This document shows positions 3,119 to 63,135 of a stretch of DNA of 64,000 nucleotides, one piece after another. Origin of the DNA: Deltaproteobacteria bacterium (GTDB taxonomy: Bacteria; Desulfobacterota; Binatia; Bin18); contig SHZE01000003.1 of NCBI GenBank assembly GCA_009692435.1, positions 797-64,796 of the forward strand. The letters run 5' to 3'. Below the pieces are notes generated by a model. It searched no databases. It saw only the letters and a program-made list of their open reading frames with translations, and was not told the DNA's origin. A program made the translations under genes and the position numbers. Positions within the stretch are counted from its first letter, which is position 1. The number at the start of each line of letters is the position of its first letter.

Positions 3119-3214
3119 AGCCTTCCTCCTTTGGCTGCTGTCCGAGTTGACTCGACCTCTATTCTCCGAAGGCATAGACGGGCTGGGCGGGGAAGTCAAG
3201 GTAAACGGAAGGAC

Positions 3215-3340
3215 GGGGAACAGGGGACAGGGGTCGGGGGACAGGGGCCGGTTCAGAAACTGGAAATTAATTTTACCCGTCCCAAGTCTCCAGTCTCTAA
3301 TCACAAGCCTCCTGCCCCCTGTTCCCCGTCCCCCGTCCCC
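3215..3340. repeat. inverted G-tract / C-tract arms (GGGGACA words) in a divergent promoter region
   Basis: Five G4-5 tracts lie at 3215..3247 and four C4-5 tracts at 3315..3340. There is a 14-bp perfect complement acggggaacagggg/cccctgttccccgt. Confidence 0.7.
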
Positions 3341-3421
3341 TGTCTTCTTCCAGGCCCCTGCCTTGCACGACGAATCATGGTACTTGTCAGCCAACAATTG
3401 GCCATTCAGTAAGGAGGTTTT

Positions 3422-4320: not shown

Positions 4321-4435
4321 GCGGATGGCTCGCTCCGCAGGGGCTTCATGGCTTATGGCTCATGGCCTATGGCCTATGGCCAGAAACACGGGACATGAAA
4401 TCAGCGCGGTGAACAAGCCATCCGCCATGAGTCTA
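4321..4435. repeat. composite palindromic element, TATGGC-word family, copy A
   Basis: The terminal inverted repeat gcggatggct...agccatccgc flanks (C/T)ATGGC(C/T) tandem words. It is alignable with 62029..62163. Confidence 0.7.
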
Positions 4436-4516
4436 AGAACTGATGCGCCAAGCGCATCTTATGGTTTCCCCATTTTTGCCTTTTGCCTTTTGATTTTTGC
4501 TTGAGGAACATCCCCT

Positions 4517-13009: not shown

Positions 13010-14242
13010 ATGCTAGCAGGAAAAACAATTGTGGTCGGAGTCACAGGTGGGATTGCCGCTTACAAAGCGGCTGAGCTTGTTCGCCTCTTGGTCAAAGACG
13101 GAGCCTTCGTCCGTGTCATCATGACGAAGAATGCTCAGGAGTTTATTACTCCCCTCACCCTGCAAACGCTGTCTGGCAACCCGGTCGCCACCGAAACGTT
13201 TAACCTCACGCAGGAGTCCGAGATCGGCCATATCCGCTTAGCCGATACTGCCGATCTCATTCTGATCGCCCCGGCTTCAGCCGATGTCATCGGTAAACTC
13301 GCGCACGGTATCGCTGATGACTTATTGACCACGGTGTTGTTGGCAACAATGGCTCCGGTCCTCGTTGCTCCCGCCATGAACGTTCACATGTACGCGCATC
13401 CCGCCGTCCAAGAGAATATCCGCATCCTTGGGCAGCGCGGCTACCGGTTCGTTGAACCCGCTGAAGGATTCCTCGCCTGTGGCTATGAAGGCAAAGGGCG
13501 ACTCGCCGATCCTGAAGATATTGTCGAAGAAGCGCGCGCGACCCTCACGAAGAAAGACCTCACCACGGAACGGATTATTGTCACGGCTGGCCCCAATGCC
13601 GAGCCCATTGATCCCGTGCGGTTTATCACCAACCGTTCAACGGGCAAGATGGGATTCGCTATGGCACGAGTGGCATGGCGAAGGGGAGCTAACGTAACCT
13701 TAGTGAGCGGGCCAACCTCACGGACTCCACCACGCGGAGTCCGGTTCCGCTCGGTCCGCACAGCACTGGAAATGCAGCAGGCTGTGCTTTCCTCTTACGA
13801 CGACGCGACCATGGTCATCTCCGCCGCCGCGATCGCGGATTATCGTCCAGCGCACGTCGCACCACAAAAGATCAAAAAACAGGATGGTGCTTTCGTTATC
13901 GAAATGACGCGCAATCCGGACATTCTGGCCGGGCTCGGTCAACAGAAAGGCAATCGACTGTTGGTCGGCTTCGCCACGGAAACGGAAAACGTCCTACAAA
14001 ATGCGATGGGCAAACTGCAAAGGAAGAATCTCGACATGATCGTGGCGAACGATGTCACTCAGGAAGGGGCGGGCTTCGCTCACGACACCAACATCGTCAC
14101 CCTCATCGATCGTGGTAAACGAATGGAAACCTTACCGCTGATGAGCAAGGACGAAGTCGCGCATACCGTCTATGATCGCCTGCTCGCGCTGAGGAAAGGA
14201 ATCGGAGAATCGGAGAATCGGGGAATCGGCGACGATCATTAG
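13010..14242 (+). CDS. coaBC: bifunctional phosphopantothenoylcysteine decarboxylase / phosphopantothenate-cysteine ligase
   Basis: The N-terminal flavoprotein domain (GVTGGIAAYKA) and the C-terminal CoaB domain (NRSTGKMG) are present. The last ~14 codons are encoded by GGAGAATC word repeats. Confidence 0.95.
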   Translation: MLAGKTIVVGVTGGIAAYKAAELVRLLVKDGAFVRVIMTKNAQEFITPLTLQTLSGNPVATETFNLTQESEIGHIRLADTADLILIAPASADVIGKLAHGIADDLLTTVLLATMAPVLVAPAMNVHMYAHPAVQENIRILGQRGYRFVEPAEGFLACGYEGKGRLADPEDIVEEARATLTKKDLTTERIIVTAGPNAEPIDPVRFITNRSTGKMGFAMARVAWRRGANVTLVSGPTSRTPPRGVRFRSVRTALEMQQAVLSSYDDATMVISAAAIADYRPAHVAPQKIKKQDGAFVIEMTRNPDILAGLGQQKGNRLLVGFATETENVLQNAMGKLQRKNLDMIVANDVTQEGAGFAHDTNIVTLIDRGKRMETLPLMSKDEVAHTVYDRLLALRKGIGESENRGIGDDH

Positions 14243-15617: not shown

Positions 15618-16373
15618 ATGGTAAAAGCAACAAAAATGGCGCTCGACTCCCAACCACTTCTCGGTCAGATCGCGATTATCACCGGTGCCAGCCGCGGCAT
15701 TGGTCGCGCCATCGCCTTACGTCTCGCTCAGGATGGGGCAACAACAGTGCTCGCCGCTCGTACTGAGCAAGCATTGCACGAAGTCGCCCAGAGGATTCAT
15801 ACCAGCGGAGGAACCTCACTCGTCGTTCCTATGGATGTCACTGAGGATCAGCAACTCACGGCGCTCATTGATCGGACACTCGCGCGGTACAATCGCATCG
15901 ATATGCTCGTGAATAACGCGGGTGGGGGACCCCCACGCACACCGATCACGAAGGCGCGACTCACGGATTGGGAATGGACGTTACGCGTCAATCTGTGGGC
16001 GACGATGGTGCTCAGCAAACTCGTGCTTCCAGGGATGATTGAACGTCGGCAGGGTGCGATCATCAACATCTGCTCGCTTGCTGGCATCACTGGCAAGGCT
16101 GGCGAAGCCGCATACGCCGCTGCGAAATTCGGGGTTCGGGGATTTACGCAGTCGTTATTCGACGAAGTGCATGAGTATGGTATCAAGGTGTCGGGCATTT
16201 TTCCTGGCTATGTCGATACTGCAATGATTCCGCCCAATCGCCGCGTTGAGCGCACCAAGATGCTCCGGCCAGAAGATGTGGCGGAGGCTGTCTACAACGT
16301 TGTCACCGCGTCGGCGCGCGCATGTCCAGTCGAAATCACCCTCCAGCCACAACATGACCCGGTGAGGACGTGA
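15618..16373 (+). CDS. SDR family oxidoreductase
   Basis: TGASRGIG, NNAG and YAAAK motifs are present. Confidence 0.9.
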   Translation: MVKATKMALDSQPLLGQIAIITGASRGIGRAIALRLAQDGATTVLAARTEQALHEVAQRIHTSGGTSLVVPMDVTEDQQLTALIDRTLARYNRIDMLVNNAGGGPPRTPITKARLTDWEWTLRVNLWATMVLSKLVLPGMIERRQGAIINICSLAGITGKAGEAAYAAAKFGVRGFTQSLFDEVHEYGIKVSGIFPGYVDTAMIPPNRRVERTKMLRPEDVAEAVYNVVTASARACPVEITLQPQHDPVRT

Positions 16374-16412
16374 AAAGTCAAAAGTCAAAAGTCAAAAGTC
16401 AAAAGTCAAAAG
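16373..16412. repeat. heptanucleotide tandem repeat (AAAGTCA) of about 5.5 units
   Basis: The sequence reads aaaagtcaaaagtcaaaagtcaaaagtcaaaagtcaaaag and begins at the stop codon of the SDR gene. Confidence 0.9.
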
Positions 16413-20134: not shown

Positions 20135-20229
20135 CGGAAAAGCCTCGAACGGAGGAAAGAGGAATCGGTTCCTTCATTCCCCCCCTCCGCTTTTCCATTT
20201 TTGACTTTTGCCTTTTGATTTTTCTTCTT
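20135..20229. repeat. word-hairpin element plus TTTTGNC word run
   Basis: cggaaaagc..ggagg pairs imperfectly with cctccgcttttcc. This is followed by ttttgacttttgccttttgattttt. Confidence 0.6.
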
Positions 20230-21502: not shown

Positions 21503-21573
21503 AAAACGTGAGACGTAAAACGTAACCACTCTCCCGGGCTCCTTACGTTTTACGCTTGACGCTTGACGTTTTC
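21503..21573. repeat. ACGTAAA-word hairpin between the ferredoxin and FAD-oxidoreductase genes
   Basis: cgtaaaacgtaa (21514..21525) pairs with ttacgttttacg (21543..21554) as a perfect 12-bp stem, with extended imperfect arms. Confidence 0.7.
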
Positions 21574-30759: not shown

Positions 30760-32256
30760 ATGTCTGATGTCATTGAATCATTACCATCATCATTAGTTCT
30801 TCGTCGTCTCCCAGTCGTCGCCATTGTCGGCCGTCCAAACGCAGGAAAGTCCACCCTTTTCAACCGTCTCCTTCGCCAGCAAAAAGCAGTCGTTGACAAC
30901 ACGCCAGGAGTCACACGGGACCGCAATTTTTCCGAAGCGCAGTGGGATGGCAATCCATTCATCTTGGTCGATACCGGCGGGATTGAGTTCCGCGAGACCG
31001 ACAACATCTCCGCCCAAGTGCAAGCGCAAACCCTCCTCGCCATCACCGAGGCTGATTTTGTCATCTTTCTGTTTGACGGGCGCGAAGGTCTCAATCCCGC
31101 CGATGCTGACGCGGTCGATCTGCTGCGCCGCAATAACAAGCCCACGTTCTTTGTCGTCAACAAAATTGATGGCGACAGACAAGAAGCGTCCGCCGCTGAT
31201 TTTTTGGTTCTCGGACTTGATCCACTCTTCACGATCTCCTCGGCGCATGGACGCGGGATCGGGGATCTCATGGAAGCGGTCACCGCCGCGTTTCCTTCGT
31301 CAGAGGAGCCAGCCCAAGACGCATCCGGTGCGGATACCGAATCGATCCCACCGGGACCACTGCGCATAGCGATCGTGGGTCGCCCAAACGTCGGTAAATC
31401 TTCGCTGCTGAATCGGTTAGTCGGAGACGAGCGGTCAATTGTCGATGCCACTCCCGGCACCACGCGCGATGCGGTTGATAGTCTCATTGAATGGAACGGC
31501 AAGCCCATTGTGTTAGTCGATACGGCTGGAGCACGACGCCGTGCCCGTGTCCACGAACGGATCGAACATGCGAGTGTCCTTATCGCCCTGAGAGCGCTGG
31601 AGCGCGCGGAGGTCGGGCTATTGGTGATTGATGCGGTGGAAGGAATGACCGACCAAGACGTGCGGTTAGCGCGGTATGCCTGGGATCGTGGGCGCGGTCT
31701 TATTCTCGTTGTCAATAAATGGGATGTGGTGCCGCCGGAGCGCAAGAACCAAGCACGTTACGTTGAAGAGTTGCGCCATTTCTTTCCGATCACCACCTCA
31801 CTTCCTGTCGTCTTTCTGTCCGCCCTCACTGGTGCGCGTATCAACAAATTGCTGCCGATGGTTGAGCAGGTCGCCCAGGCGCACGCACGCCAAATCCCGA
31901 CAGCGCAGTTGAATCGGTCCTTTCAGGAATGGACCACACGCACCCCACCACCGAGCTATCACGGGCGACAGCCGCGCATCTTCTACGTCACCCAAGTCGG
32001 CATCAAGCCTCCCTGCTTGGCCATCTTCACCAGCGCACCAGAAGGGATTCCCCCAGCTTACAACCGCTATCTAGAGAATCAGCTCCGTGAGCAGTTCGAC
32101 CTTGCGGGCACGCCGATCAAGCTGAGTTTTCGCTCGCGTCGCAAGGAAGACGCTGCGACGGGGCGAGAACCCGAAGGCAGAAAGCAGAAAGCAAAAAGCA
32201 AAGGGCAAAAATCAAAAATTGAAACCAAAAAATCAAAGGGCCGCGGACAAAAATAA
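30760..32256 (+). CDS. der: ribosome biogenesis GTPase Der (EngA) with Lys-rich C-terminal tail
   Basis: There are two GTPase domains (GRPNAGKST and GRPNVGKSS, each with a DTAG/DTGG motif) and a KH-like domain. The tail KQKAKSKGQKSKIETKKSKGRGQK is encoded by GCAAAAA/ATCAAAA word repeats. Confidence 0.95.
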   Translation: MSDVIESLPSSLVLRRLPVVAIVGRPNAGKSTLFNRLLRQQKAVVDNTPGVTRDRNFSEAQWDGNPFILVDTGGIEFRETDNISAQVQAQTLLAITEADFVIFLFDGREGLNPADADAVDLLRRNNKPTFFVVNKIDGDRQEASAADFLVLGLDPLFTISSAHGRGIGDLMEAVTAAFPSSEEPAQDASGADTESIPPGPLRIAIVGRPNVGKSSLLNRLVGDERSIVDATPGTTRDAVDSLIEWNGKPIVLVDTAGARRRARVHERIEHASVLIALRALERAEVGLLVIDAVEGMTDQDVRLARYAWDRGRGLILVVNKWDVVPPERKNQARYVEELRHFFPITTSLPVVFLSALTGARINKLLPMVEQVAQAHARQIPTAQLNRSFQEWTTRTPPPSYHGRQPRIFYVTQVGIKPPCLAIFTSAPEGIPPAYNRYLENQLREQFDLAGTPIKLSFRSRRKEDAATGREPEGRKQKAKSKGQKSKIETKKSKGRGQK

Positions 32257-32316
32257 TGAGGAAGCATCTACCGCTTTTTATTTTCTTATTTTTGCCTTTT
32301 GATTTTTGATTTTTCC
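32176..32316. repeat. GCAAAAA/ATCAAAA-word hairpin spanning the der 3' end
   Basis: The purine-rich arm (32176..32240) lies inside der. The pyrimidine-rich arm (32275..32316) lies in the spacer. Confidence 0.65.
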
Positions 32317-33704
32317 TACACTCCCGCCCGCCAATTCCCATGAAACCCATACGGGACACGGTGGGGGAGCTTCACCGTCGCCAGTGGTTTCGCTTCGATA
32401 TTCTCCGCATCAAGGATGACCAGGTCGCTACGGTTGGCCTCCTGTCGATAGACAACGGCGAGCAGGAACCCCTCCCCTTCCAGTGCGTGAGGAGTACGCG
32501 GCACAAAAACCGGTTCCGACGTAAAGCTCGTCGTACCCAAATGATGCTCTCGTCGCCGCCCAGTCTGGTGGTCGTATAAGAAGATCGCATTGAAGAGCCC
32601 AGTCTCCGAGGTCACCCCGACGCGACCTCCGGTGTAACCGTAGCGATACGGACGCCCGGCGAAGCGTTCATCAAGCCGTGGGAATTCGACCGGGCTTTCA
32701 TCGAGAGCCGTTTCTTTGACAGCGCCAGACCGGAGATCGAGAGTCCAGCGCGTCAGGCGGGCGGAGTCAATGTTGTCGCGATCGCGTTTTTCCACCCCGT
32801 CAAAGAGCGGCAGGCGATTGAAGCGACAGACATCGGCAATGACACAGTTCCTCTCCGTGTACGCGTTCATGGGGTGAAAGACAAAGCACGGATCGGTCTC
32901 AAACCAACGGACATCCGTGTTCCCCCCGTTGCGTGGCATAACGCCGATTTTCGTACCAAGCTCAGGCTCCCAGCGAATCGGCGCGGCTGAAGCAAAGTTT
33001 TCAGAGCGGAACGTCGCCGGGAACACCATGAAAATCACATGTTCACGTGTCGTGATGAAATCATGCATCATCGTGGGCACTGGGACCTCAATCTCTTCGC
33101 TCCGCGTGATCGTTCCCGTGGCATCTGCCACATAATAGTGGAGGTACGGTGGGAAGGGGCTGTAACCGAAGAACAGCAGCTCTCCCGTTTCCGGGTCAAT
33201 CTTCGGGTGCGCGGTCATCGGGCCGAGGAGCCGTCCATTAAAGTCGTAGGGCCCGATGGTCTCCAGCGTCTGGGGATCGAGCTCGTGGGGAGGTCCGGCT
33301 TCCCAAAGCGCAAGCAACTTGCCACCATGAACAACGATGTTGGTATTGGCCACATTGGGAAAAATTCCTTCCGCGCGGGGGTCTGTGTTGGTCCAATCGG
33401 TAAGCCCGCCGAAGAGCGCCTCCCCGATCTCACGCTCCATGGTAAATTTTTGGGTCCGCACCCAACGATTGCGATAATGCGCTTTTTCATCACGAAGCGT
33501 AAAGGCGTGCACCATGCCATCGCCGTCGAACCAATGATACTGACCGCGTGGGGCGAATTGGGGATTCGGTCCGTTCCGATACAAGGTCCCGTCGAGTTCG
33601 CGCGGAATCTCTCCGTCAACCACAAGATCGCAAATATCGCCCTCCATCGGCCAGGGACCATAGTTGCCGCGCAAGAATGGATCATCAGGGAATGGGTGGC
33701 TCAT
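32316..33704 (-). CDS. carotenoid oxygenase (RPE65/CCD/lignostilbene dioxygenase family)
   Basis: 462 aa. The conserved His contexts are present (HWFDGDGMVH, HPKIDP, MMHDFITT, FHPMNAY) and the C-terminus has GFHGNW. Confidence 0.9.
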   Translation of the reverse strand: MSHPFPDDPFLRGNYGPWPMEGDICDLVVDGEIPRELDGTLYRNGPNPQFAPRGQYHWFDGDGMVHAFTLRDEKAHYRNRWVRTQKFTMEREIGEALFGGLTDWTNTDPRAEGIFPNVANTNIVVHGGKLLALWEAGPPHELDPQTLETIGPYDFNGRLLGPMTAHPKIDPETGELLFFGYSPFPPYLHYYVADATGTITRSEEIEVPVPTMMHDFITTREHVIFMVFPATFRSENFASAAPIRWEPELGTKIGVMPRNGGNTDVRWFETDPCFVFHPMNAYTERNCVIADVCRFNRLPLFDGVEKRDRDNIDSARLTRWTLDLRSGAVKETALDESPVEFPRLDERFAGRPYRYGYTGGRVGVTSETGLFNAIFLYDHQTGRRREHHLGTTSFTSEPVFVPRTPHALEGEGFLLAVVYRQEANRSDLVILDAENIEAKPLATVKLPHRVPYGFHGNWRAGV

Positions 33705-39368: not shown

Positions 39369-39495
39369 AACAAGAGCCCACTTTTCTCTGCTCTCCCGAC
39401 TCTCCCTTTCCCCGATTCCCCGTTTCTCCGACTCTTCCCCACCTTGCCCCACTCTTGCGTTGCGCCCAAGTAGCTGGGTATTATCCCGCCCCACC

Positions 39496-45598: not shown

Positions 45599-45603
45599 AA
45601 AGA

Positions 45604-45706
45604 ATTGAGTCATCGGGTGATTGAGTCACCGGGCCATTGCTCAAATCCCCAACCCAATCCCCCAATTTCCCAATTCTTCAATGACTCAATCACCCGATGA
45701 CTCAAT
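45604..45706. repeat. perfect 25-bp inverted repeat (ATTGAGTCA words) with a 53-nt CCAAT-rich loop
   Basis: attgagtcatcgggtgattgagtca (45604..45628) is the exact reverse complement of 45682..45706. Confidence 0.9.
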
Positions 45707-45731
45707 GTCTCAATAGCGTTCGAGGTAAATT

Positions 45732-48405: not shown

Positions 48406-49051
48406 TCGGTCACCAGTTATTAGTGACCAGTTCTCTGTTATCAGTCGGCGGTCGGCAGTCAGCAGTCGCCACGCCTCAAGACAAAAACTCTGGAAGACAC
48501 CCAGGATTTTCTGTCTCTCCTTCTGCCTCTTGCTACTCTCCGCCTGTTCGCGACCTCAGGGCAACTCCACAAAAACGGACCTCACTCAGTACATTGACAC
48601 CGCCCGCTCATGGGCAGCCACGGAATTGCAAATTAACGCGGCTATCGCCAAAGTCCGCGAAGATCAATTTGTCCACGATGACCTGATTCTTGCCACCCTA
48701 CGACCTGTCGTTAGCGTTTCTCAGAAATACGTCCAGCAATTAGAAAACCATCATCCACGCACCCCGCCATTACGGAATGTCCATTTGGAATATATTGAAG
48801 CCTGGCGAGCTCATTACCTTGCGTTCGCCTCAATGATCGATTCCGTGGAAAAGAAAGACTATATCCAGCTTGCGAAAGCCAGTGACGACCTGCTCGAAGC
48901 GCAACGTTCGGTTGCCGACGCACTTACCGACCTCGCTCGACTGATGCAGGAAGCCGGACTCCGACCCGCTCCCCCTGGAAATCAACAATCGAGACCGCCA
49001 GCATCATCTTCCGCGGGCCCTGCTTCTCAAATGTCACCCAAAGGCATGTAA
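48386..49051 (+). CDS. hypothetical lipoprotein (all-helical)
   Basis: The lipobox is LLLSAC. The long N-terminal region is encoded by a repeat element (48405..48470), so the start is uncertain. Confidence 0.55.
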   Translation: MGSRTSNRSPVISDQFSVISRRSAVSSRHASRQKLWKTPRIFCLSFCLLLLSACSRPQGNSTKTDLTQYIDTARSWAATELQINAAIAKVREDQFVHDDLILATLRPVVSVSQKYVQQLENHHPRTPPLRNVHLEYIEAWRAHYLAFASMIDSVEKKDYIQLAKASDDLLEAQRSVADALTDLARLMQEAGLRPAPPGNQQSRPPASSSAGPASQMSPKGM

Positions 49052-49080
49052 ACTAACCCCTCCCCCAGGTATGACAAAAA

Positions 49081-49115
49081 AATCCCCAGTCTGAATCTAG
49101 ACTGGGGATTTTTTT
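49081..49115 (+). terminator. rho-independent terminator
   Basis: aatccccagtct-gaatc-tagactggggatt is flanked by an A7 run upstream and a T7 run downstream, 30 nt after the stop at 49051. An AT-rich region follows. Confidence 0.8.
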
Positions 49116-49315
49116 GTCAAAAATTTGCATTGCTTGTGTTTTTATTATATACGAGCCTCTGACCTCTACTCTTTATCCACATCTTCAGGAACGAAAGGAG
49201 GGCAGGTCAGACAAGCGGGATACAAGTGGTTTTACTGACGAACTACCGTCGCACCAACGTCATCGGTGCAGGGCACAATGAGGGACTTCTTAAGAAATTT
49301 TGGGCAGGAGGGATC

Positions 49316-55354: not shown

Positions 55355-55413
55355 AACAGGACTAGCTCAGGCGCGGTGCGTGCACCGCGCCATCCGGCAC
55401 CGAACAAAACGTC

Positions 55414-55447
55414 AAAAGGCGGGTCACAAGCCCGCCTTTTCTATTTG
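55414..55447 (+). terminator. rho-independent terminator
   Basis: aaaaggcggg-tcacaag-cccgcctttt is followed by CTATTT. A second GC hairpin lies at 55368..55391. Confidence 0.75.
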
Positions 55448-55537
55448 CGAATGACCGTCTGTGTTTCTCTCGCCCTGGCGCGGCCATGAAAAATATGTGA
55501 AGATGCCCCGCCGAAACCCCAAAAGGAGGAGATGCCA

Positions 55538-57229
55538 ATGGCTAGTGTAGATGGTGGTGCGCTTATCGGGCGCATCCTGAAAGAACAAAAAGTGAAATAC
55601 ATGTTCGCCGTCAATGGCGGGCATACGTTTCCGATCCTCGCCAACCTTATGAACAACGATGTGGACCTCATCCACATGCGCCACGAACAAGCCTGCGCCT
55701 ACGCGGCGGACGGCTATGCGCGTGTCACCGGAACGACCGGCGTGTGCTGCGTTACCGCGGGCTGCGGACTCACCAACGCCGTGACCGGCCTCTGTGTGGC
55801 GGGACTCACCAACAGCTCCGTGGTGTGTCTCTCCGGCCAGCATCCCACCACCGAAGACTACATTGGGTCCTTCCAAGAAGCCTACGGCTCCGATGTCGTG
55901 CGGACGTTCACTAAGTTCGCCAAGCGGGTACTCGATTGGTCAACCATTGAGGTCGACCTGCGCCAGGCCTTCCGTGAAGCCATCAACCCACCGCAAGGCG
56001 TGTCGATGCTGGAAATTCCTCAGAACATTCTCTATCACGTGGACGACGAGAACAAACAGCGCAAAGGCGCGAAAGTGTATGGCTCGGACGAACTCCGTTC
56101 GCAAGGAGATCCCCGCTCAATCGAAAAGACCGCTGAACTCCTCTTCAAGGCGCAGAGACCGTTGATCGCTGGTGGTGATGGCATTTTCTGGTCCGGTGCC
56201 GCGGCGGAGTTGAAAGAACTTGCTGAACTCACGAGCACCCCGGTCTATTGCCGCCGCTCTGGACAAGGCGCGGTTGATGAGGCCCATCCGCTGGCGATTC
56301 GTGGAGCGTGGAAGAAACCGTTCACCGGTGAAGCGGATGTCGTCCTCGCCGTGGGTTTCAAATACTGGAGCGGTGAGAAATTCGGCGAGCCCCCGACGTG
56401 GAGTGACAAAGCCACCTACATTCAAGTGGACCCAACGCCACAGCGGGTCGGCTGGCACGTTCCCGCTGAAGTCGGTATCGTCGGCGACCCCAAACTCGTA
56501 CTGCGCCAGATTATCGATAAGATCAAAGAGATGAAGCTCGATTTCAGCTCGAAACGGGAAAGCCCGTGGATCAAGCAGATGGGCGACATTCGCGCGAATT
56601 ATGAGAAGCTCATCGGTGAACGCGCGGTGAAATACGCGAACAACACACCGATTCATCCTGACCGCCTCACCAGCGACCTGATGAAAGTGATTGATAAGAG
56701 CGCGTCGCTGATTATCGATAGCTTCACGCTCAGCGGCTACACCAGCCAATGGTTCACCGCCCATGAGATGGGACAAGTCGTGGATGCGGGACCGCTCGCC
56801 CCAGTGGGTCATGGCGTTGGCATGGGTATTGGCGTGCAGCTTGGTCGTCCAGGCAAGCAAGTCATCCTCATCAGCGGCGACGGCGGCCTGGGCATTGGCG
56901 GCATGGATATCGAAACCGCCGCGAAGTACAAAATTCCTCTCATCACGTTGTTGTGGAATAACAGCTCATGGGGTCCGAGTTTCGAGTCGATGCCGATCCT
57001 CAAAGGACGCACCAAACCGTTCGACATGGTCCCGAACATTCGCTACGACAAGGTGTTCGAGCCGATGGGCGTGTACACTGAACATGTCGAGAAAAACGAG
57101 GAGATCATTCCTGCTCTTGAGCGGGCATTGAAGTCCGGCAAGACGGCACTGATCAATGTCTTCGGTGACAAGCGTGTTGGTCATCCGACATTGGGCGGGA
57201 ATTTGTTGGGATCGACAAAGCAGGTGTAA
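55538..57229 (+). CDS. thiamine diphosphate-dependent enzyme (acetolactate synthase / oxalyl-CoA decarboxylase-like)
   Basis: It has an N-terminal ThDP domain (HEQACAYAADGYARVTG) and a C-terminal GDGGLG..NNSSWG motif. The start is ATG 55538, or 55532 as an alternative. Confidence 0.9.
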   Translation: MASVDGGALIGRILKEQKVKYMFAVNGGHTFPILANLMNNDVDLIHMRHEQACAYAADGYARVTGTTGVCCVTAGCGLTNAVTGLCVAGLTNSSVVCLSGQHPTTEDYIGSFQEAYGSDVVRTFTKFAKRVLDWSTIEVDLRQAFREAINPPQGVSMLEIPQNILYHVDDENKQRKGAKVYGSDELRSQGDPRSIEKTAELLFKAQRPLIAGGDGIFWSGAAAELKELAELTSTPVYCRRSGQGAVDEAHPLAIRGAWKKPFTGEADVVLAVGFKYWSGEKFGEPPTWSDKATYIQVDPTPQRVGWHVPAEVGIVGDPKLVLRQIIDKIKEMKLDFSSKRESPWIKQMGDIRANYEKLIGERAVKYANNTPIHPDRLTSDLMKVIDKSASLIIDSFTLSGYTSQWFTAHEMGQVVDAGPLAPVGHGVGMGIGVQLGRPGKQVILISGDGGLGIGGMDIETAAKYKIPLITLLWNNSSWGPSFESMPILKGRTKPFDMVPNIRYDKVFEPMGVYTEHVEKNEEIIPALERALKSGKTALINVFGDKRVGHPTLGGNLLGSTKQV

Positions 57230-57244
57230 GAGACAAAACGCACC

Positions 57245-57320
57245 GGAGAAACGGAGAGCGGGAGAATCGGGGAAAGGAAGAAAACTTTTTCTTTCCTCAC
57301 TCTCCGCTTCTCCGTTTCCG
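57245..57320. repeat. GGAGAAAC/GGAGAATC-word hairpin
   Basis: ggagaaacggagagcgggagaatcggggaaaggaagaaaa faces tttttctttcctcactctccgcttctccgtttccg. Confidence 0.65.
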
Positions 57321-57340
57321 TCTTCTTAGGGAGGAACCTC

Positions 57341-57553
57341 ATGGTTAAAGTCTATTGCGACCGTTGCAGCACTGAGGTTGAAAACCTCGACGCCTTATTA
57401 CAGTTCTCGATTGAAGTCACCGAACAGCCGAATCGCACCGCGTGGAGTTGGCACACGGAAGTGTGTCAGGATTGTTTTGTGCTTATGAAAGACGACATTT
57501 CCTCACGCGTCACACAGCCGCCAGAGGATAAAAAGAAAGGACCGAAGAAATAG
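57341..57553 (+). CDS. small zinc-ribbon-like protein (CxxC...CxxC) with Lys-rich tail
   Basis: It has RBS GGGAGG and contains CDRC and CQDC. No family recognised. Confidence 0.5.
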   Translation: MVKVYCDRCSTEVENLDALLQFSIEVTEQPNRTAWSWHTEVCQDCFVLMKDDISSRVTQPPEDKKKGPKK

Positions 57554-57580
57554 GGATCACGGTTGCCGTGCTCCCGCCCC

Positions 57581-58201
57581 TTACTTCACACCCAAGAATG
57601 CCAAATCCTGCAAATACTCCTCCATCGGTACCATGCCGATACGCAACCGTTTCCCACCGATAATCACCGTCGGCACCGCCGTCACATAGTACTGGTCACT
57701 CGCCTCTTCGCACTGCTGGCGTACCGAGTCTTGTAGTGCGGGATCGTCAATATCTCGCAGGAACGTCGGCATATCGAGACCAGCCGCGCGTGCCACCGCC
57801 ACGAGATTATCCTTGTCGATCAGACTTTGCCCTTCAATAAAAAATGAACGGTAGAGCGCGGGATGAAAGCGGTGAAATGCCTCCTCGCCTTGCCGTTGTG
57901 CCGCCACTCCAGCTTCGAGGCCCGGCATACTCCAGCGCGGGAATTCTTCTTTCTCCCACATGTTGTAGGTAATACCTTCAGGTTCCGCCATCGCCGAAAT
58001 ACGTTTCCAGGCTTTCTCGACATAGCTGTCCTGAAAGCGGAACGGACTCGGATCATATTGCGGACGAAGGGCGAAGGGATGCCAGCGGATGGAAACGCGG
58101 TCACCAAAGCGTTCTTTGATTTTCTGCAAGCGCACGGCCGCAGGATAACACCAGGGTCACAGGTAGTCGGAGAATTCAACGATTTCGACAGGGCCATCCA
58201 T
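57581..58201 (-). CDS. DsbA/FrnE-like thiol oxidoreductase, candidate selenoprotein (in-frame TGA at 58157..58159 gives a U-P-W-C active site)
   Basis: ATG 58199..58201 follows GGAGG with a 5-nt spacer. The in-frame read is MDGPVEIVEFSDYL-TGA-PWCYPAAVRLQKIKERF..., which continues into track ORF 57581..58135. The TGA replaces the first Cys of the family CPWC motif. Confidence 0.7.
58124..58143 (-). ncRNA. candidate bacterial SECIS hairpin (within the CDS)
   Basis: The mRNA segment CUGCGGCCGUGCGCUUGCAG starts 13 nt after the UGA. It has a 6-bp stem (4 Watson-Crick plus 2 G-U pairs) and a G/U-containing apical loop. It has not been scored with any model. Confidence 0.35.
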
Positions 58202-58225
58202 AAGAACCTCCAGCCCGTGGATCAT

Positions 58226-58987
58226 TTACGAGCCTTGTAAAATGTTCACCACCGCATCATGCACGCGACCATTCGAGATGATCGCATTCCCAGTATAAAT
58301 CGACGGCGAACCGGCAAAATCCGAAAAGCGGCCACCTGCCTCGGTGACAAGAATCTTCGTCGCCGCCACATCCCACGGCTTGATTTCGGGCTCTAGCGTC
58401 ACTTCCGCTTGTCCGCAAATCACGACACTGTGTCCCAGGGCATCGCCAAACCCTCGCTGACGCGCGGTGGCATCAATAAGACGGAGAAACGATCCCCAGC
58501 AGGGCCGCACCTTGAGATCCTTGAGGCCACCATGAATGAGCATCGACTTGGCCAAGTCGTCAACATCGGACACCCGCACCCGCTGGCCATTGGCGAAAGC
58601 CCCCTGCCCTTTCCGCGCAGAGAGCAAGTCGTTGATTGCCGGTGCGGACATCACACCAGCCGTAATCTCGCCCTCTTCTTCCAGTGCGATGAGGGTCGCG
58701 AAGAACGGAATGCCGCGAATGAAATTCTTAGTGCCATCAATAGGATCAATAATCCACCGAGTGTTGACCTGACCAGCACGCTCGCCCATCTCTTCCCCAA
58801 GAAAGCCGTACGCGGGGAAATGCTGGCTAAGAATTTCAATAATCGTCGCTTCGCATTCGCGATCGGCTTTGGTCACCGGGGTGCGGTCGGCTTTGGTCTC
58901 GACCTTGAGATTGGTACGAAAATAATGGAGCGCGATTTCGCCAGCGGCTTTGGCGGCTTCGAGAGCGGCATTCAGTACGTCATCCAT
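58226..58987 (-). CDS. inositol monophosphatase family protein (SuhB/HisN-like)
   Basis: FLGEE, WIIDPIDGTKNF and the C-terminal WD.AA motif are present. I prefer ATG 58987 over TTG 59014. Confidence 0.85.
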   Translation of the reverse strand: MDDVLNAALEAAKAAGEIALHYFRTNLKVETKADRTPVTKADRECEATIIEILSQHFPAYGFLGEEMGERAGQVNTRWIIDPIDGTKNFIRGIPFFATLIALEEEGEITAGVMSAPAINDLLSARKGQGAFANGQRVRVSDVDDLAKSMLIHGGLKDLKVRPCWGSFLRLIDATARQRGFGDALGHSVVICGQAEVTLEPEIKPWDVAATKILVTEAGGRFSDFAGSPSIYTGNAIISNGRVHDAVVNILQGS

Positions 58988-59008
58988 AGTCTGTTGATAG
59001 CAGCGGGT

Positions 59009-59103
59009 GGGCAAAAGGGAAAACGGGGAAAGGGGGAAACGGAAGACAAAAAATGGGTTCTTCCTTTGTCCTTTTACCCTTCGCCCCTTTTACCCGTTTC
59101 GCC
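59009..59103. repeat. GGGAAAAC/GGGGAAAG-word hairpin
   Basis: The purine-only arm (59009..59057) faces the pyrimidine-rich arm (59058..59103). Confidence 0.6.
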
Positions 59104-59114
59104 ATTCCCTTGCG

Positions 59115-59906
59115 TTACAGCAGTCCCCGCAACAATCCGCCGTCCACTTGAACAGCCACGCCGTTCACATAGCTTCCCGCTTCCGAACCGATGAAGACAA
59201 TGACGTTCGCCATTTCTTTCGGATCACCAACACGTCCGAGCGGCACATCGGCCCCACTATCTTCAAGGGTTTGCTCAATCGTTTTGCCGGTCCGCTGGGC
59301 TCGCGCGGCGAGGCCACTTCTGAGCCGATCCGTCAGAATACGGCCTGGCAGGATCGTATTTACAGTAATGTTGTCCTTACCGACTTCGCGCGAGAGGGTT
59401 TTCGCCATCCCGACCACAGCCGGGCGTACCCCATTCGAGAGAATTAGCCCGTCAATCGGCTCTTTCACCGACATCGACATCACGCTCAGTAAGCGTCCCC
59501 ATTTCTGTTTCTGCATGAAGGGAATCGCTTTGCGAAAAAGGCGCACGGTACTGAGGAAATTCAGCGAGAACGCGCTCTCCCAATCGGCATCCGACATATT
59601 ACCAAAGCCACCGAGCGGCGGTCCGCCAGTGTTGGCGACCACGACGTGGATGGTACCGAATTTCTTGATGGTCTCATCAAGAAACTGGTCTGTCGCTTCC
59701 AGTTTCGACAAATCGCCCGGCACGGCCAATATCTCTGCGCCGGTCTCCTTGCGGATTTCTTCGGCGGTCGCCTCAAGCTGCGCCGGATCACGTGCGCTAA
59801 TGGCCACTTTCGCGCCCTCGCGGGCAAATCCCAAGGCGGTCGCTTTGCCAATCCCTTTGCTCGCACCGCCAACCATCACGACTTTTCCTTTCAGTCCAAG
59901 GTCCAT
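59115..59906 (-). CDS. SDR family oxidoreductase (FabG-like)
   Basis: ATG 59906 follows GGAGG. The GGASKGIG motif is present. The upstream part of the track ORF lies in a repeat. Confidence 0.9.
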   Translation of the reverse strand: MDLGLKGKVVMVGGASKGIGKATALGFAREGAKVAISARDPAQLEATAEEIRKETGAEILAVPGDLSKLEATDQFLDETIKKFGTIHVVVANTGGPPLGGFGNMSDADWESAFSLNFLSTVRLFRKAIPFMQKQKWGRLLSVMSMSVKEPIDGLILSNGVRPAVVGMAKTLSREVGKDNITVNTILPGRILTDRLRSGLAARAQRTGKTIEQTLEDSGADVPLGRVGDPKEMANVIVFIGSEAGSYVNGVAVQVDGGLLRGLL

Positions 59907-59960
59907 TCCGCTCCTCCTTGTTAAATGAAACCGCCCGCTGTCGCCGGTGAAGAACTGAAC

Positions 59961-60044
59961 CGGGGAATCGGGGATGGGGGGAATCGGGGAAAGAAAAAAG
60001 GCCGTTTGTTGTCTTCTTCCCCGATTCTCCGTTTCTCCGTTTCG
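59961..60044. repeat. GGGGAATC-word hairpin
   Basis: The core gaatcggggaa/ttccccgattc is perfect and is flanked by related words. Confidence 0.65.
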
Positions 60045-60051
60045 TTTTCGA

Positions 60052-60906
60052 CTACGCCGCCAAGTATCCCTTCTTCTGGTAAAACTCGCGCACGGCGGCT
60101 TCAAACCCAGAGGGATTATCTCCCATCACCGAATGACCAGCTTTCGGCACCAACGAGAAATCGGCACCAGGAATGAGTTGCTGAAATTCTTTCACCCCGT
60201 CGAGCGAGAGCACGTCACTCTCACCACCTTTCACGAGCAGCGTCGGACATTTGATCTTCTGGACCTCCGCGGCCAATTCGTCGTGCATCTGTTTCATGTC
60301 CACGGAACGGTGACCTTCGCTGAAATAGGTATCGTACTTCCATGACCACTTGCCGCTCGGCAACTGTTTCAGGTTGTAGACACAGGTATATTTACGGATC
60401 ACTTCCAGCGGACGGCGAGGGTTGAATTTGTGAATGATCGCCGCGGCTTCATCCAGGTCGTTGAATTCGCGATAGTTACTCATGAAATCACGAATATGTT
60501 TGACCCCTTCTTTCTCGACACGAGGACCAACATCGACAACAACCAACGCCTCGACCTTATGGGAATGATTCGAGGTAAATGACAGTGAATTCGCACCGCC
60601 CATCGACATGCCGGTAAGAAAGAAGCGTTTCAGCCCAAGCGCATTGGTAAACGCATCAGCGTCTTTCACCATCGTCTTACGAGAGTAATCTTTATCGGCG
60701 GCCCAGTCGGTATCCCCGTGGCCACGTTGGTCGAACGCCATGACATGGAAGTGCGGCGACATGGCGGCGGAGAACAAGTCCCAAGTATGGCAGGTCTGCC
60801 CAACCCCATGAAGCAACACTAAGGGCGGCTTCTCGGGATTACCCCAGTCGAGATAATGAAACTTGAGTCCGTTGGCGTGAACGAAACGATCGGTGAACTG
60901 TGTCAT
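60052..60906 (-). CDS. alpha/beta hydrolase
   Basis: It has the HG oxyanion motif (LLHGVGQT), the nucleophile elbow GMSMGG and a C-terminal GH. ATG 60906 follows GAGGAGG. Confidence 0.9.
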   Translation of the reverse strand: MTQFTDRFVHANGLKFHYLDWGNPEKPPLVLLHGVGQTCHTWDLFSAAMSPHFHVMAFDQRGHGDTDWAADKDYSRKTMVKDADAFTNALGLKRFFLTGMSMGGANSLSFTSNHSHKVEALVVVDVGPRVEKEGVKHIRDFMSNYREFNDLDEAAAIIHKFNPRRPLEVIRKYTCVYNLKQLPSGKWSWKYDTYFSEGHRSVDMKQMHDELAAEVQKIKCPTLLVKGGESDVLSLDGVKEFQQLIPGADFSLVPKAGHSVMGDNPSGFEAAVREFYQKKGYLAA

Positions 60907-60992
60907 ACGAGTCCCCTCCTCTAGCATTGCAATAGCATTGCGAGCTATCGCGGACAGCGAGAGAATGCAAGAGGCACGGCGGCGGGCGAGGA

Positions 60993-61066
60993 GAAATCAA
61001 AAGGCAAAAGGCAAAAGTCCCCGCCCTCCCCTCTTCTTCTATTTTTGCCTTTTGCCTTTTGATTTC
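60993..61066. repeat. perfect 24-bp inverted repeat of GGCAAAA words
   Basis: gaaatcaaaaggcaaaaggcaaaa (60993..61016) is the exact reverse complement of 61043..61066, with a 26-nt loop. It lies between two minus-strand genes. Confidence 0.9.
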
Positions 61067-61068
61067 CC

Positions 61069-61728
61069 TTATTTCAGCAGTCCGTCCACCACTGCCGGCG
61101 TCAATTCCGCTAGACTCGCGAGAACAAGACTTGCCTGGCGAAAATCATTGCGAAGCGTGTACTCATTAGGCACCGCGACACAGCGTATGCCCGCATTCAC
61201 CGCAGCCATGACCCCTTTGTAGGTATCCTCAATCACCACGCATCGTTCTGGTGGCAACTCCAGTTTCCGCGCGGCGGTGAGAAACGCATCGGGCTGGGGT
61301 TTCGCCTCGCGATAATCTTGTCGTGCCACGGTCACGGGAAAGAACCGGTCGATGCCCATCCGTCGCAACACGAAGTCAAGATGTTCACGATTCGTGTTGG
61401 TGGCGACGGTCAATGCAAACCGCGACGAGAGTTGCATGAGCGTTTCTTCAACATGCGGCATCAAGGTCACTGCGGTTTCCAAGAGTTGGAGATAAATCGG
61501 GGACCGCAATTGGCGGAGTTCGTCAGGAGCAATAGGGAGGTTATATTTCGCCACGATATATTCCGGCCCGGTGCCTTGCGCTATCCAATGCTCCTCGTAC
61601 TCTTCGCGCGACACCGTCACACCATACGGTTTCAGCACTGCACTATACGCGCGATAATACAGCCCTTCGGAGTCAATCAGCACTCCATCCAGATCAAAGA
61701 TCACACCTTGCGAGAATTGCCCAGCCAT
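61069..61728 (-). CDS. HAD-family hydrolase (beta-phosphoglucomutase-like subfamily IA)
   Basis: The DLDGVLIDSE motif follows ATG 61728, and EDTYKG is present near the C-terminus. Confidence 0.85.
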   Translation of the reverse strand: MAGQFSQGVIFDLDGVLIDSEGLYYRAYSAVLKPYGVTVSREEYEEHWIAQGTGPEYIVAKYNLPIAPDELRQLRSPIYLQLLETAVTLMPHVEETLMQLSSRFALTVATNTNREHLDFVLRRMGIDRFFPVTVARQDYREAKPQPDAFLTAARKLELPPERCVVIEDTYKGVMAAVNAGIRCVAVPNEYTLRNDFRQASLVLASLAELTPAVVDGLLK

Positions 61729-61787
61729 AACTTTTACTTCCTCTCTGGGATTCAGCTTGCCAGACTTTTCCGTTACAGTCAGCAGCC

Positions 61788-62030
61788 ATGAAGCCAGACG
61801 CAGCGATATCCCCTGAGGGAGCAATCGACCCCTCAGACGCTTGGGTCGAGATTTTCCACTCACTCGGACTGCCCGCGTATCGGATCCGCGTTGAAGCCAA
61901 GGACAAGATGGTCTGTATCCAAGCGCCGCCAGAAGATTTCCCGCGTCTGCTTGCCCCGGCCATCCGTCCGGTTTTGGTGAAGCATGGGAAGGCGCTGGGG
62001 TATCGGTTTGTGACGCTGGATATGAGCTAG
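61788..62030 (+). CDS. small protein resembling the C-terminal domain of LarE/PP-loop ATPases (stand-alone or gene remnant)
   Basis: YRIRVEAKDKMVCIQAPPEDFPRLL...GKALGYRFVTLDM resembles the remembered LarE-type C-terminus (VR.HG..ARIEV..E....L......L.ELGF.YVTLDL). There is no SD sequence and no PP-loop domain upstream. Confidence 0.35.
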   Translation: MKPDAAISPEGAIDPSDAWVEIFHSLGLPAYRIRVEAKDKMVCIQAPPEDFPRLLAPAIRPVLVKHGKALGYRFVTLDMS

Positions 62031-62163
62031 CGGATAGCCCGCTCCCTACGGTCGCTTTATGGCGTATGGCTTATGGCAAAAATGCTCCGGCTATAGCGTG
62101 AGCGAAGTGAACGAACCATACGCCATAGAGTGGGCGGAGCGAACGAGCCATCCGCCATACGCC
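62029..62163. repeat. composite palindromic element, TATGGC-word family, copy B
   Basis: tatggcgtatgg pairs with ccatacgccata as a perfect 12-bp stem. The right module gcgRWgYgaacRaRccatMcgccat is duplicated. The element sits 58 nt upstream of tRNA-Pro. Confidence 0.7.
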
Positions 62164-62221
62164 TGCCCTTGACCCCTTCTCTTGAGAGACGCTAAGAGAG
62201 TGGGGCGAAGCTATCGCATGT

Positions 62222-62298
62222 CGGGGTGTAGCGCAGCCTGGTAGCGTACTCGCTTGGGGTGCGAGTGGTCGGCCGTTCAAATCGGCTCACCCCGACCA
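62222..62298 (+). tRNA. tRNA-Pro (anticodon GGG), CCA encoded
   Basis: I folded the cloverleaf by hand. The acceptor is CGGGGTG/CACCCCG, the anticodon stem is CTCGC/GCGAG with loop TTGGGGT, and the T-arm is GGCCG-TTCAAAT-CGGCT. Total length is 77 nt. Confidence 0.9.
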
Positions 62299-62320
62299 GT
62301 TCGTAGTAGTACCCCCACGG

Positions 62321-62356
62321 AAAGGCGACCGTATGAAAACGGTCGCCTTTCTTATT
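62321..62356 (+). terminator. rho-independent terminator after tRNA-Pro
   Basis: 11-bp stem aaaggcgaccg/cggtcgccttt with loop tatgaaaa, followed by CTTATT. Confidence 0.65.
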
Positions 62357-62382
62357 GCCTCACTTTCTGCTCAAATGCCGCC

Positions 62383-63135
62383 ATGATTATCCTCATCTCA
62401 AATGATGACGGGATCCATTCCGAAGGACTGCGCGCGTTGGAAGAAGCCCTTGCCACTATCGGCGAGATTTATACGGTTGCCCCGGATCGTGAACAAAGCG
62501 CGGTCAGCCATGCACTGACCCTCCATCATCCGCTTCGCATCGAAGAAATCGCGCCTCGTCGGTTTGCTGTCAGCGGCACCCCAACCGATTGTATCAACCT
62601 CGCCGTCAAAGGATTTCTCCCGGTCCGGCCACAGCTCGTGGTCTCAGGGATCAATAAAGGGGCCAATCTGGGAGATGATGTGACTTATTCAGGAACGGTC
62701 TCCGCCGCCATTGAGGGGTCGCTCTTGGGAATTCCCTCGATTGCGGTTTCGCTCGTGGCACGCAGTGCGCCATATCTGTTTGGTCCAGCGGCGGAGTTTG
62801 CCGCCGTGCTTGCGTCCGAAGTTATCTCCCAAGGAATGCCCTCCGACACTTTGCTCAACGTCAATGTCCCCCATTTGCCAAAAGACCAATTACGAGGCTA
62901 CCAAATGACCCGCCAAGGGAAACGTCATTACGCGGAAAAGCTCGAAGAACGCGTCGATCCCCGCGGACGGAAGTATTACTGGATTGGTGGGGATGATCTC
63001 GGGTTCGACCCAGTGGAAGGCACGGATTGTGTCGCCGTGCATGAAGGCTACATTTCCGTGACTCCCCTCCACGTTGACCTCACGAATTACCGTACCCTGC
63101 ACGAATTACGCGACCTACAATTGCCATGGCAGTAG
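62383..63135 (+). CDS. surE: 5'/3'-nucleotidase SurE
   Basis: MIILISNDDGIHSEG starts at ATG 62383. The track extension overlaps the tRNA. A GINKGAN motif is present. Confidence 0.9.
   Translation: MIILISNDDGIHSEGLRALEEALATIGEIYTVAPDREQSAVSHALTLHHPLRIEEIAPRRFAVSGTPTDCINLAVKGFLPVRPQLVVSGINKGANLGDDVTYSGTVSAAIEGSLLGIPSIAVSLVARSAPYLFGPAAEFAAVLASEVISQGMPSDTLLNVNVPHLPKDQLRGYQMTRQGKRHYAEKLEERVDPRGRKYYWIGGDDLGFDPVEGTDCVAVHEGYISVTPLHVDLTNYRTLHELRDLQLPWQ

Follow-up and report, generated by a model that had tools for sequence, protein, structure and literature searches.

Inverted pairs of heptamer arrays form purine-first hairpins in the gene spacers of a Candidatus Binatia genome

In the intergenic DNA of bacteria, few unexplained features are as abundant as tandem arrays of heptamers. 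The cyanobacterial STRR heptamers, known from about 1990, are dispersed intergenic tandem repeats with an orientation bias to neighbouring genes. Repeats of the REP/BIME and REPIN type are intergenic, co-transcribed hairpins, often less than 15 nt from a stop codon, which shield upstream mRNA from 3' exonucleases and attenuate transcription, REPINs being inverted doublets that form long hairpins. Here we describe hairpins whose two arms are tandem arrays of short words (hereafter word hairpins) in a 64,000-nucleotide window (C11:797-64796) of the genome of an uncultured soil Candidatus Binatia bacterium (labelled G000), with emphasis on four of them, H1-H4, at 57245-61066.

The closest described repeats are the GGGAATC and GGGGA(C/T)T heptamers of Xanthomonas and Nostoc PCC 7120 (Rehm et al. 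2015; PMC4692102). Each genome carries 70-75 inverted heptamer pairs, 'always' G-rich and then C-rich, and the repeats of both organisms lie nearer to their 5' neighbour whatever its orientation (PMC4692102). In the Beggiatoaceae, forward TAACTGA arrays provide stop codons in all three frames (PMC4679880), and in the 23S rRNA of Coxiella a 28-bp stem around a PF05635-type gene is cut mid-stem by RNase III (PMC4990558). The first-pass annotation of the window did not recognise its hairpins as a described family, which is wrong in part, as heptamer inverted pairs near stop codons have been described in Xanthomonas (PMC4692102). The word hairpins belong to this known, unexplained class of bacterial heptameric repeats. 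They are a real family by architecture, not by sequence, and consist of inverted pairs of short tandem-repeat arrays, mostly with 7-nt and sometimes with 8-nt units. From the sequence evidence we favour, with a probability of about 45%, the reading that they are slippage-driven repeat palindromes in operon junctions that would serve as RNase III or decay-barrier punctuation, or as leaky attenuators, and not as efficient terminators.

Word hairpins in the window and across the genome

H1-H4 separate five unrelated metabolic genes (reading of 57000-61300), which by Pfam encode a thiamine pyrophosphate (TPP) enzyme, an inositol monophosphatase (IMP), a short-chain dehydrogenase (SDR), an alpha/beta hydrolase (ABH) and a HAD hydrolase; a DsbA-like gene (DSB) also lies within the stretch. 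All four hairpins of the first-pass annotation are present, with stems of 24-28 paired bases, one of them perfect over 24 bp, and arms that Tandem Repeats Finder (TRF) resolves into tandem 7- or 8-nt words (Table 1). They fold at -31 to -44 kcal/mol with z values of -1.9 to -8.5 in seven of the eight combinations of strand and site, the eighth (59005-59108, antisense, +) reaching -1.1.

Across the whole genome, an incomplete metagenome bin (2.14 Mb in 109 contigs, 56% G+C, 83% complete), a custom seed-and-extend inverted-repeat finder returned 216 hairpin loci at a score of at least 14, against 7 in a control permuted inside 60-nt blocks, so that the hairpins are far more numerous than chance would give. 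This finder superseded an RNALfold-style contig scan, which was dropped as too noisy, giving 4383 local structures below -25 kcal/mol at 56% G+C. The 216 loci comprise 43 members of a REP-like family (CGTCATTCCCGCGNAGGCGGGAATCCAG), 42 word hairpins, whose arms are periodic (39 of period 7 and three of period 8), 26 purine-rich non-periodic hairpins, including canonical A-tract/T-tract terminators such as that at 49072-49119, and 105 others. Word-hairpin stems have 15-45 pairs (median 24) and loops of 4-83 nt, and the word length first given as 5-8 nt narrows to 7 nt in most cases and 8 nt in some. The arrays themselves, called with TRF over the same genome, show the same preference, with 337 at period 7 and 95 at period 14, whereas period 6 accounts for only 52; all these counts are minimum estimates, as the bin is incomplete and arrays coincide with contig ends. 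Of the 422 period-7 and period-14 arrays that were classified by location, 314 fall between genes, in spite of a coding share of about 80% of the DNA. The commonest words are AAAAGGC (33 arrays), AAAACGT (24) and AAGAATG (16), and the vocabulary is otherwise broad.

Thirty-two word hairpins lie in co-directional spacers, four in convergent and four in divergent ones, with at least one divergent call doubtful; the remaining two are an apparent coding site, which is a miscall, and a locus at a contig edge. The 32 co-directional hairpins begin a median of 3 nt past the stop codon, and all but three of them (29) are closer to that stop than to the next start. The distance from hairpin to next start has a median of 32 nt and falls below 40 nt in 18 hairpins and below 25 nt in 12, distances too short to hold a promoter. 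A word hairpin is present in 3.1% of the co-directional and in 1.9% of the convergent spacers, so that this class shows no convergent enrichment. In contrast, the REP-like class occupies 8.1% of convergent and 1.7% of tandem spacers, and the non-periodic purine-rich class 3.8% and 1.3%, respectively, so that both favour convergent spacers, unlike the word hairpins (Fisher p = 0.001).

Polarity and evolution of the arms

Adjacent purine-rich (R) and pyrimidine-rich (Y) arrays of the genome stand in the order R-Y in 35 pairs and Y-R in none (p = 6e-11), nine of the 35 joining different words, and the strict purine-first polarity claimed by the first-pass annotation holds. That this polarity is preserved on both strands, as was also claimed, is a mathematical identity, since R-loop-Y also reads as R-loop-Y on the opposite strand; the informative part is the absence of Y-loop-R. 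The 5' arm has a purine fraction of at least 0.7 in 55 hairpins and of at most 0.3 in four, and among the word hairpins G exceeds C in 36 of 40 and A exceeds T in 36 of 40. Read from left to right, the purine content of adjacent arrays falls in 61 of 80 cases, rises in eight and changes by at most 0.1 in 11. Arrays are nearer to the gene on the 5' side of their purine strand in 176 cases and nearer to the 3' side in 60, in any gene orientation, with a median distance of 6 nt where the 5'-side gene boundary is a stop codon, and a weak purine gradient of the same sign persists when the arrays are masked. Samples of relatives gave four R-Y pairs and no Y-R pair, and a search for the exact two-word pattern GKCAAAA x2 ... 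TTTTGMC x2, which tests polarity and not prevalence, found it in three of 201 genomes of the class and its reverse in none.

Polarity is thus a rule of the orientation of arrays to the nearest gene boundary and not only a rule of hairpins, and it is not explained by pairing because it holds for single arrays and for non-matching pairs. Our best guess is that the purine-first order would arise from selection against purine-rich, Shine-Dalgarno-like runs before start codons and, in addition, from a weak pyrimidine-RNA:DNA hybrid on the descending arm; the end identity of a once-mobile element is a third candidate cause. Stop codons within the words were considered and rejected as a general cause, as only about half of the top words have one and GGCAAAA, GTCAAAA and GGAGAATC contain none.

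The gene order HAD-ABH-SDR-IMP-DSB is kept in at least 10 genera of the family, and the orthologous spacers hold either a hairpin of the same word class with another sequence and length or no hairpin, in which case they measure 22, 18, 20, 6 or 2 nt; the spacers orthologous to that of H2 (SDR-IMP) have the same word class or are 2-20 nt long. Because the hairpin-less junctions measure only 2-22 nt, the hairpins would lie inside a string that is co-transcribed, as judged from spacing and conservation, and because the ancestral junctions are tight and the ribosome-binding site must stay beside the start, an insert would come to lie flush with the stop.

The spacer between ABH and SDR differs from genome to genome within the genus though the flanking proteins are 97-98% identical, with a GGAGAATC-word hairpin in G000, a different, GGGGAAA-word hairpin in G002, a shorter hairpin plus another inserted palindrome in G001, and no hairpin but a 22-nt spacer in G003. 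The HAD-ABH hairpin is orthologous across the sister genomes and its loop is conserved, and its arms are of the GGCAAAA/TTTTGCC type in three copies in G000 and GTCAAAA/TTTTGAC in five copies in G002, both arms having been altered together. The finding of orthologous hairpins in independent assemblies of sister genomes shows that they are not assembly artefacts, and the concordant change from G000 to G002 shows the co-variation of arms between relatives that a maintained structure had been expected to display. Throughout the genome, 127 of 181 off-consensus arm positions are mirrored in the opposite arm, a count biased upward by the score cut-off, and 32 face the consensus base there, which shows that the arms are true inverted copies and not two independent arrays. 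Both observations accord with the suggestion of the first-pass annotation that perfect long stems imply active maintenance.

Word class is kept by locus across genera (GKCAAAA at HAD-ABH, GGRGAAWC at ABH-SDR and GGGNAAAM at SDR-IMP), and hairpin abundance is patchy, being highest in the genus of G000, moderate in genera g5, g9 and g10 and near zero in 100-kb samples of g3 and g8. Copy number and word variant, as judged from these comparisons, change fast and in both arms together. Replication slippage, combined with a DNA-level process in which one arm templates the other, would build such stems and keep them near-perfect. Seven-nucleotide loops are outside the range of MutS, and loss of mismatch repair was set aside as a cause.

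An all-against-all comparison of loops in G000 found only spill-over of the arrays and gives no support for recent transposition. The genome G165, from another family (f12), has five GGCAAAA/TTTTGCC hairpins (C84:12189, C125:3934, C174:8337, C199:2659 and C322:1957), of which four, seen after stop codons, have a near-identical G-rich loop, GGAGGGGGGCGGGGCAC, with a Shine-Dalgarno-like GGAGG; this shared loop resembles that of H4, and the loop of the fifth hairpin (C174) differs. Other inserts occupy the same spacers in relatives. In G021 (L008/L017) a 473-nt insert with a CCCCCCTTTTTCAAAGGGGGG palindrome, and with a small frame that, judged by eye, looks endonuclease-like (DUF559-type), replaces the HAD-ABH word hairpin, and another dispersed palindrome (CTTCGACAGGCTCAG..GAACGG / ..CTGAGCTTGTCGAAG) stands in the IMP-DSB spacer of L002 and the ABH-SDR spacer of L012. 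The junctions of the gene string therefore accept several kinds of hairpin insert.

Table 1. Word hairpins, single word arrays and a contrasting terminator in the window (positions are those of the window; energies in kcal/mol).
Feature	Position	Strand	Words and structure	Neighbouring genes	Folding
H1, word hairpin	57245..57320	+	5' arm GGAGAAAC/GGAGAGC/GGGAGAATC/GGGGAAA; 3' arm its pyrimidine complement	begins 15 nt past TPP-enzyme stop (57227-57229); ends 20 nt short of ATG 57341	minimum free energy -42.3, z -4.9
H2, word hairpin	59009..59103	-	GGGNAAAA/GGCGAAAC-type 8-mers; 28 pairs with bulges	between SDR stop (59115) and IMP start (58987); 21 nt from hairpin end to start	sense (-) -40.9, z -3.4
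H3, word hairpin	about 59957..60044	-	GGAGAATC/GGGGAATC 8-mers	begins 7 nt past ABH stop (60052); ends about 50 nt short of SDR start (59906)	sense -30.8, z -1.9; antisense -43.7, z -3.7
H4, word hairpin	about 60989..61069	-	ATCAAAA-GGCAAAA-GGCAAAA / TTTTGCC-TTTTGCC-TTTTGAT; perfect 24-bp stem (60993-61016 / 61043-61066), extended to 27 bp; loop G-rich, GAGGGGAGGGCGGGGAC on sense strand	foot touches HAD-hydrolase stop codon (61069-61071)	z -5.9 and -8.5 (two strands)
Word hairpin	45600..45710	+	ATTGAGTCA-type words; arms perfect over 25 bp	between co-directional + genes; 6 nt after stop 45598, about 22-26 nt before start 45732	
Word hairpin	3211..3344	none	GGGGACA words; 25-28 pairs, 68-nt loop	spacer upstream of - gene	
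Word hairpin	21503..21573	-	ACGTAAA words	4 nt after - gene stop 21577, 20 nt before - start 21483	
Word hairpin	32173..32317	none	GCAAAAA/ATCAAAA words	between convergent genes; - gene stop 32316	
Single array	16373..16412	+	(AAAAGTC) x5.7, purine-rich; no hairpin	starts on stop of gene 15618-16373	
Single array	20197..20229	-	GTCAAAA/GGCAAAA/ATCAAAA, purine-rich on -	flush with stop of - gene 20230-21483	
Single array	4472..4500	+	(TTTTGCC), pyrimidine-rich; purine-rich strand points away from + gene at 4517	16 nt upstream of + start 4517	
Single array	39385..39440	+	pyrimidine-rich 8-mers complementary to GGAGAATC-type words	at or upstream of + start	
Single array	14196..14232	+	GAATCGGA x3.9	3' end of + open reading frame 13010-14242	
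Contrast: canonical bidirectional terminator design, not a word hairpin	49072..49119		A7, 21-nt perfect arms, 6-nt loop, T7	after gene 48386-49051	

The five single arrays of Table 1, which the first-pass annotation had listed with the hairpins, are not hairpins. The elements of its TATGGC class (4321-4435 and 62029-62163) share a core, GCTCGCTCCC..CGGTCGC, are not purine-rich, recur in the genome at C13:10392, C67:34412 and C85:10872, and look like another dispersed repeat family, separate from the word hairpins. The REP-like family has 43 palindromic copies of about 85 nt around its core (for example C6:6306-6391 and C15:1310-1397) and resembles the neisserial dRS3-type repeat, ATTCCC-N8-GGGAAT. 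Rfam matched a single feature in the whole window, a tRNA at 62222-62295, and no word hairpin.

Several arrays adjoin or enter reading frames. Directly after H1 an unannotated open reading frame (ORF) for 70 amino acids (57341-57553), with a GGAGG ribosome-binding site 7 nt upstream, encodes two CxxC pairs and has no Pfam match. The + ORF at 30760-32256 runs through the stop-free GCAAAAA/ATCAAAA purine arm at 32173-32256 and so acquires a C-terminal tail rich in Lys; the end of this ORF appears to be supplied, or to have been captured, by the array. Elsewhere in the genome, GGCAAAA arrays often lead composite heptamer strings that form no hairpin (C25:12110, C39:5015, C95:17607, C27:10330 and C4:10367), in the order ATCAAAA/GGCAAAA, GGACTGA, GAAACYC and TTGGACC, with purine content declining along the string. 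Heptamer arrays break metagenome assemblies, so that counts from bins underestimate them; upstream of the RNase III gene rnc, contigs of two sister genomes (G001:C129, L150, and G002:C165, L151) end inside or beside such arrays.

What the hairpins may do

On the reading that we favour, the hairpins would be transcribed inside polycistronic RNA, their adjacency to stop codons would result largely from insertion into 2-22-nt junctions that keep the ribosome-binding site by the start, and the RNA stem would punctuate the message through an RNase III-type cut, a barrier to 3' exonucleases or both, with termination at most leaky. The bacterium has an rnc gene, and the longest word hairpin of its genome, with 45 pairs in AAGAATG units (C11:68310-68440, L149, beyond the window end), ends 10 nt before the rnc start; AAGAATG-type words precede rnc in genera g1, g4 and g5. 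In E. coli rnc is autoregulated, and the L149 hairpin may by analogy be a substrate for autoregulation as the rnc leader is there. This hairpin before rnc, together with the cutting by RNase III of stems of this length around PF05635 genes in 23S rRNA and the presence of word arms around the PF05635 genes of G000, makes a role for RNase III plausible by analogy.

Several results weigh against such a reading. Any function of the hairpins is dispensable, as sister genomes without a hairpin at the same junction show no visible damage. The stems of the 32 co-directional word hairpins contain, as transition mismatches, 15 G·U and 30 A·C on the sense strand, and in only 10 of the 32 is the sense RNA the more stable fold of the two strands (p = 0.04, in the wrong direction for selection on the sense stem); the lack of a sense-strand G·U bias therefore favours maintenance at the DNA level over selection on the transcript, without excluding an RNA role. 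The strict polarity is predicted by neither RNase III processing nor decay barriers. In addition, gene calls came from a home-made ORF scorer, and starts and spacer classes are error-prone.

The polarity is what would be needed by bidirectional intrinsic terminators, the function proposed by the first-pass annotation, in which a weak pyrimidine-RNA:purine-DNA hybrid would free RNA polymerase whichever way the hairpin is read. Hybrids of r(pyrimidine) with d(purine) are less stable than the opposite kind, the hairpins directly adjoin stop codons, the 3' arm is at least 50% T in 24 of the 42 word hairpins, and the canonical A-tract/T-tract terminators of G000, as at 49072-49119, have the same polarity. 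In Xanthomonas, moreover, such repeats coincide with transcript starts or stops more frequently than control repeats do (PMC4692102). However, efficient terminators should be enriched between convergent genes, where the other two hairpin classes are and the word hairpins are not; over half of the co-directional word hairpins leave less than 40 nt to the next start, as does the hairpin 10 nt before rnc, and the hairpins lie inside a gene string conserved throughout the family. A T4 run stands at the 3' foot of only 12 of the 42, G-rich words give 3' arms that are C-rich and not U-rich, the polarity extends to non-complementary pairs and single arrays, and the sense strand has no G·U bias. A consensus promoter and terminator scan of 55000-63000, uninformative in itself as hits were no more numerous than in shuffles, does not single out the word hairpins. 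Efficient bidirectional termination is thus improbable.

The same lack of G·U bias agrees with the view that the hairpins are functionless by-products of heptamer slippage unseen by mismatch repair and of palindrome self-correction, persisting where they are harmless; operon junctions would tolerate them because the folded hairpin holds the stop and the next ribosome-binding site close. Presence, absence and whole-word replacement among sisters with 97-98% identical flanking proteins, a patchy distribution across genera of one family and loops that differ between copies within G000 are all consistent with this, as is the general heptamer excess of bacteria, which has been explained by slippage of the polymerase (cited in PMC4692102 and PMC4679880). 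A neutral process should yield both polarities, though, and yet the reversed order is absent among the adjacent arrays of G000 and, for GKCAAAA, from all 201 genomes; moreover, locus word classes persist across genera, a few words dominate the arrays and a G-rich loop is common to distant families. We regard a purely neutral origin as possible but doubtful.

Arrays of the same kind also flank genes for PF05635, the 23S rRNA intervening-sequence protein. All four PF05635 genes of G000 lie between purine-rich and pyrimidine-rich heptamer arrays, each with different words, and about 16 of 20 sampled in relatives, including complete genomes, are bracketed likewise. The arrays could be terminal inverted repeats of a mobile or once-mobile family resembling MITEs (miniature transposable elements with inverted repeats), an ORF-less counterpart of PF05635 cassettes, whose polarity would be element-end sequence read from outside inwards. 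PF05635 copies number 2-11 in hairpin-rich genera and none in four g3 genomes, a correlation that is phylogenetically confounded; the G165 hairpins share their loop, C174 excepted, with a likeness to G000; and the ABH-SDR spacer of G002, set against that of G003, looks like a clean insertion of about 130 nt right behind the stop codon. Closely related PF05635 proteins carry similar words, but the tree was built from crude ORF extraction with many long branches, and its weak hints carry no weight in the argument. Against mobility, no transposase or conserved interior was found in G000, although no search was aimed at RAYT, and no target-site duplication was seen by eye at the G002/G003 junction, which was not systematically searched. 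PF05635 is a small four-helix bundle and not a known recombinase, G017 has hairpin-type matches without a PF05635 gene, and words inherited by locus fit old insertions evolving in place and not current mobility. That the hairpins of G000 are decayed PF05635 cassettes was rejected, as a tblastn comparison of 24 PF05635 proteins with all hairpin loci detected no remnant of them in the loops. A mobile origin appears unlikely on balance.

A wider hypothesis, which we consider speculative and unlikely, is that most members of a widespread class of transcript-embedded, heptamer-armed palindromes lack an ORF and are the word hairpins, that its ORF-bearing members carry the PF05635 four-helix-bundle gene, the 23S rRNA intervening sequences being only those noticed first, and that polarity, locus words and concerted arms would reflect a dedicated mechanism of maintenance or recognition. 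Binding or copying that is specific to one strand, for which the PF05635 protein is a candidate, could underlie such a mechanism, together with excision of the RNA by RNase III. If real, the mechanism would in addition account for the STRR-like heptamer arrays, a long-standing puzzle. Very improbable, finally, is a role as G-quadruplex (G4) or i-motif elements of DNA or RNA, as proposed for the Xanthomonas and Nostoc repeats. The G-rich words GGGGACA, GGGGAATC and GGGGAAAC do give at least four G-tracts, for example at 59009-59042, and GGGAATC repeats form G4 in vitro (PMC4692102), but AAAAGGC, AAAACGT and AAGAATG, the commonest words, have the same placement and polarity without G3 tracts, and in paired elements the duplex with the complementary arm competes with G4.

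Comparison with described systems

The Binatia genome shows that this architecture is independent of any particular word and of G-quadruplex potential, and the exceptionless purine-then-pyrimidine rule, the inheritance of words by locus and the concerted change of arms are testable constraints on any mechanism. On the practical side, metagenome assemblies break at these elements, ORFs are falsely extended by them, and operon prediction can mistake them for terminators.

With intrinsic terminators the word hairpins share a position after the stop, an A-rich 5' side and a U-rich 3' side. The usual terminator, in contrast, has a G+C-rich stem of about 5-12 bp, a short loop and a U-tract, whereas word stems have 15-45 pairs, lack a G+C-rich clamp and a free U-tract, and stand within operons where no room is left for a promoter. 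REP and REPIN families each have one conserved sequence and are mobilised by RAYT, while word hairpins have many words and no conserved core in G000, which possesses its own, separate REP-like family of 43 copies with a preference for convergent spacers. Relative to MITEs, inverted ends are present and an empty site is seen in G003 compared with G002, but an interior is shared only among the five G165 copies. In the 23S rRNA intervening sequences of Coxiella and Leptospira a long stem encloses a PF05635 gene inside a transcript (PMC4990558), and the PF05635 genes of G000 lie between arms of the kind seen in the word hairpins; the word hairpins themselves differ in being ORF-less, in their short loops and in their place between protein genes.

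The TAACTGA repeats of Beggiatoaceae are, like the arrays described here, tandem heptamers dispersed between genes and strongly biased in their orientation to the neighbouring genes (PMC4679880). Nearly all of them, however, are direct repeats just upstream of starts, with one inverted case among 170 sets (PMC4679880), whereas the Binatia pairs are commonly inverted. The Xanthomonas and Nostoc repeats (PMC4692102) come closest, with 7-nt units, a strongly intergenic location, a preference for co-directional spacers, few copies between divergent genes, and a repeat type that persists although length and sequence change fast from one sister species to another; the words GGGGAATC and GGAGAATC also occur in the Binatia genome. 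The Binatia elements differ in having many word classes, most of the commonest not capable of forming G4 and not of the form GGGNATC, in having 8-nt units as well, and in a polarity that extends to non-matching pairs and to gradients over multiple arrays. Beyond this, they add a new lineage, in which each locus inherits its word class and arms of the same kind flank PF05635 genes.

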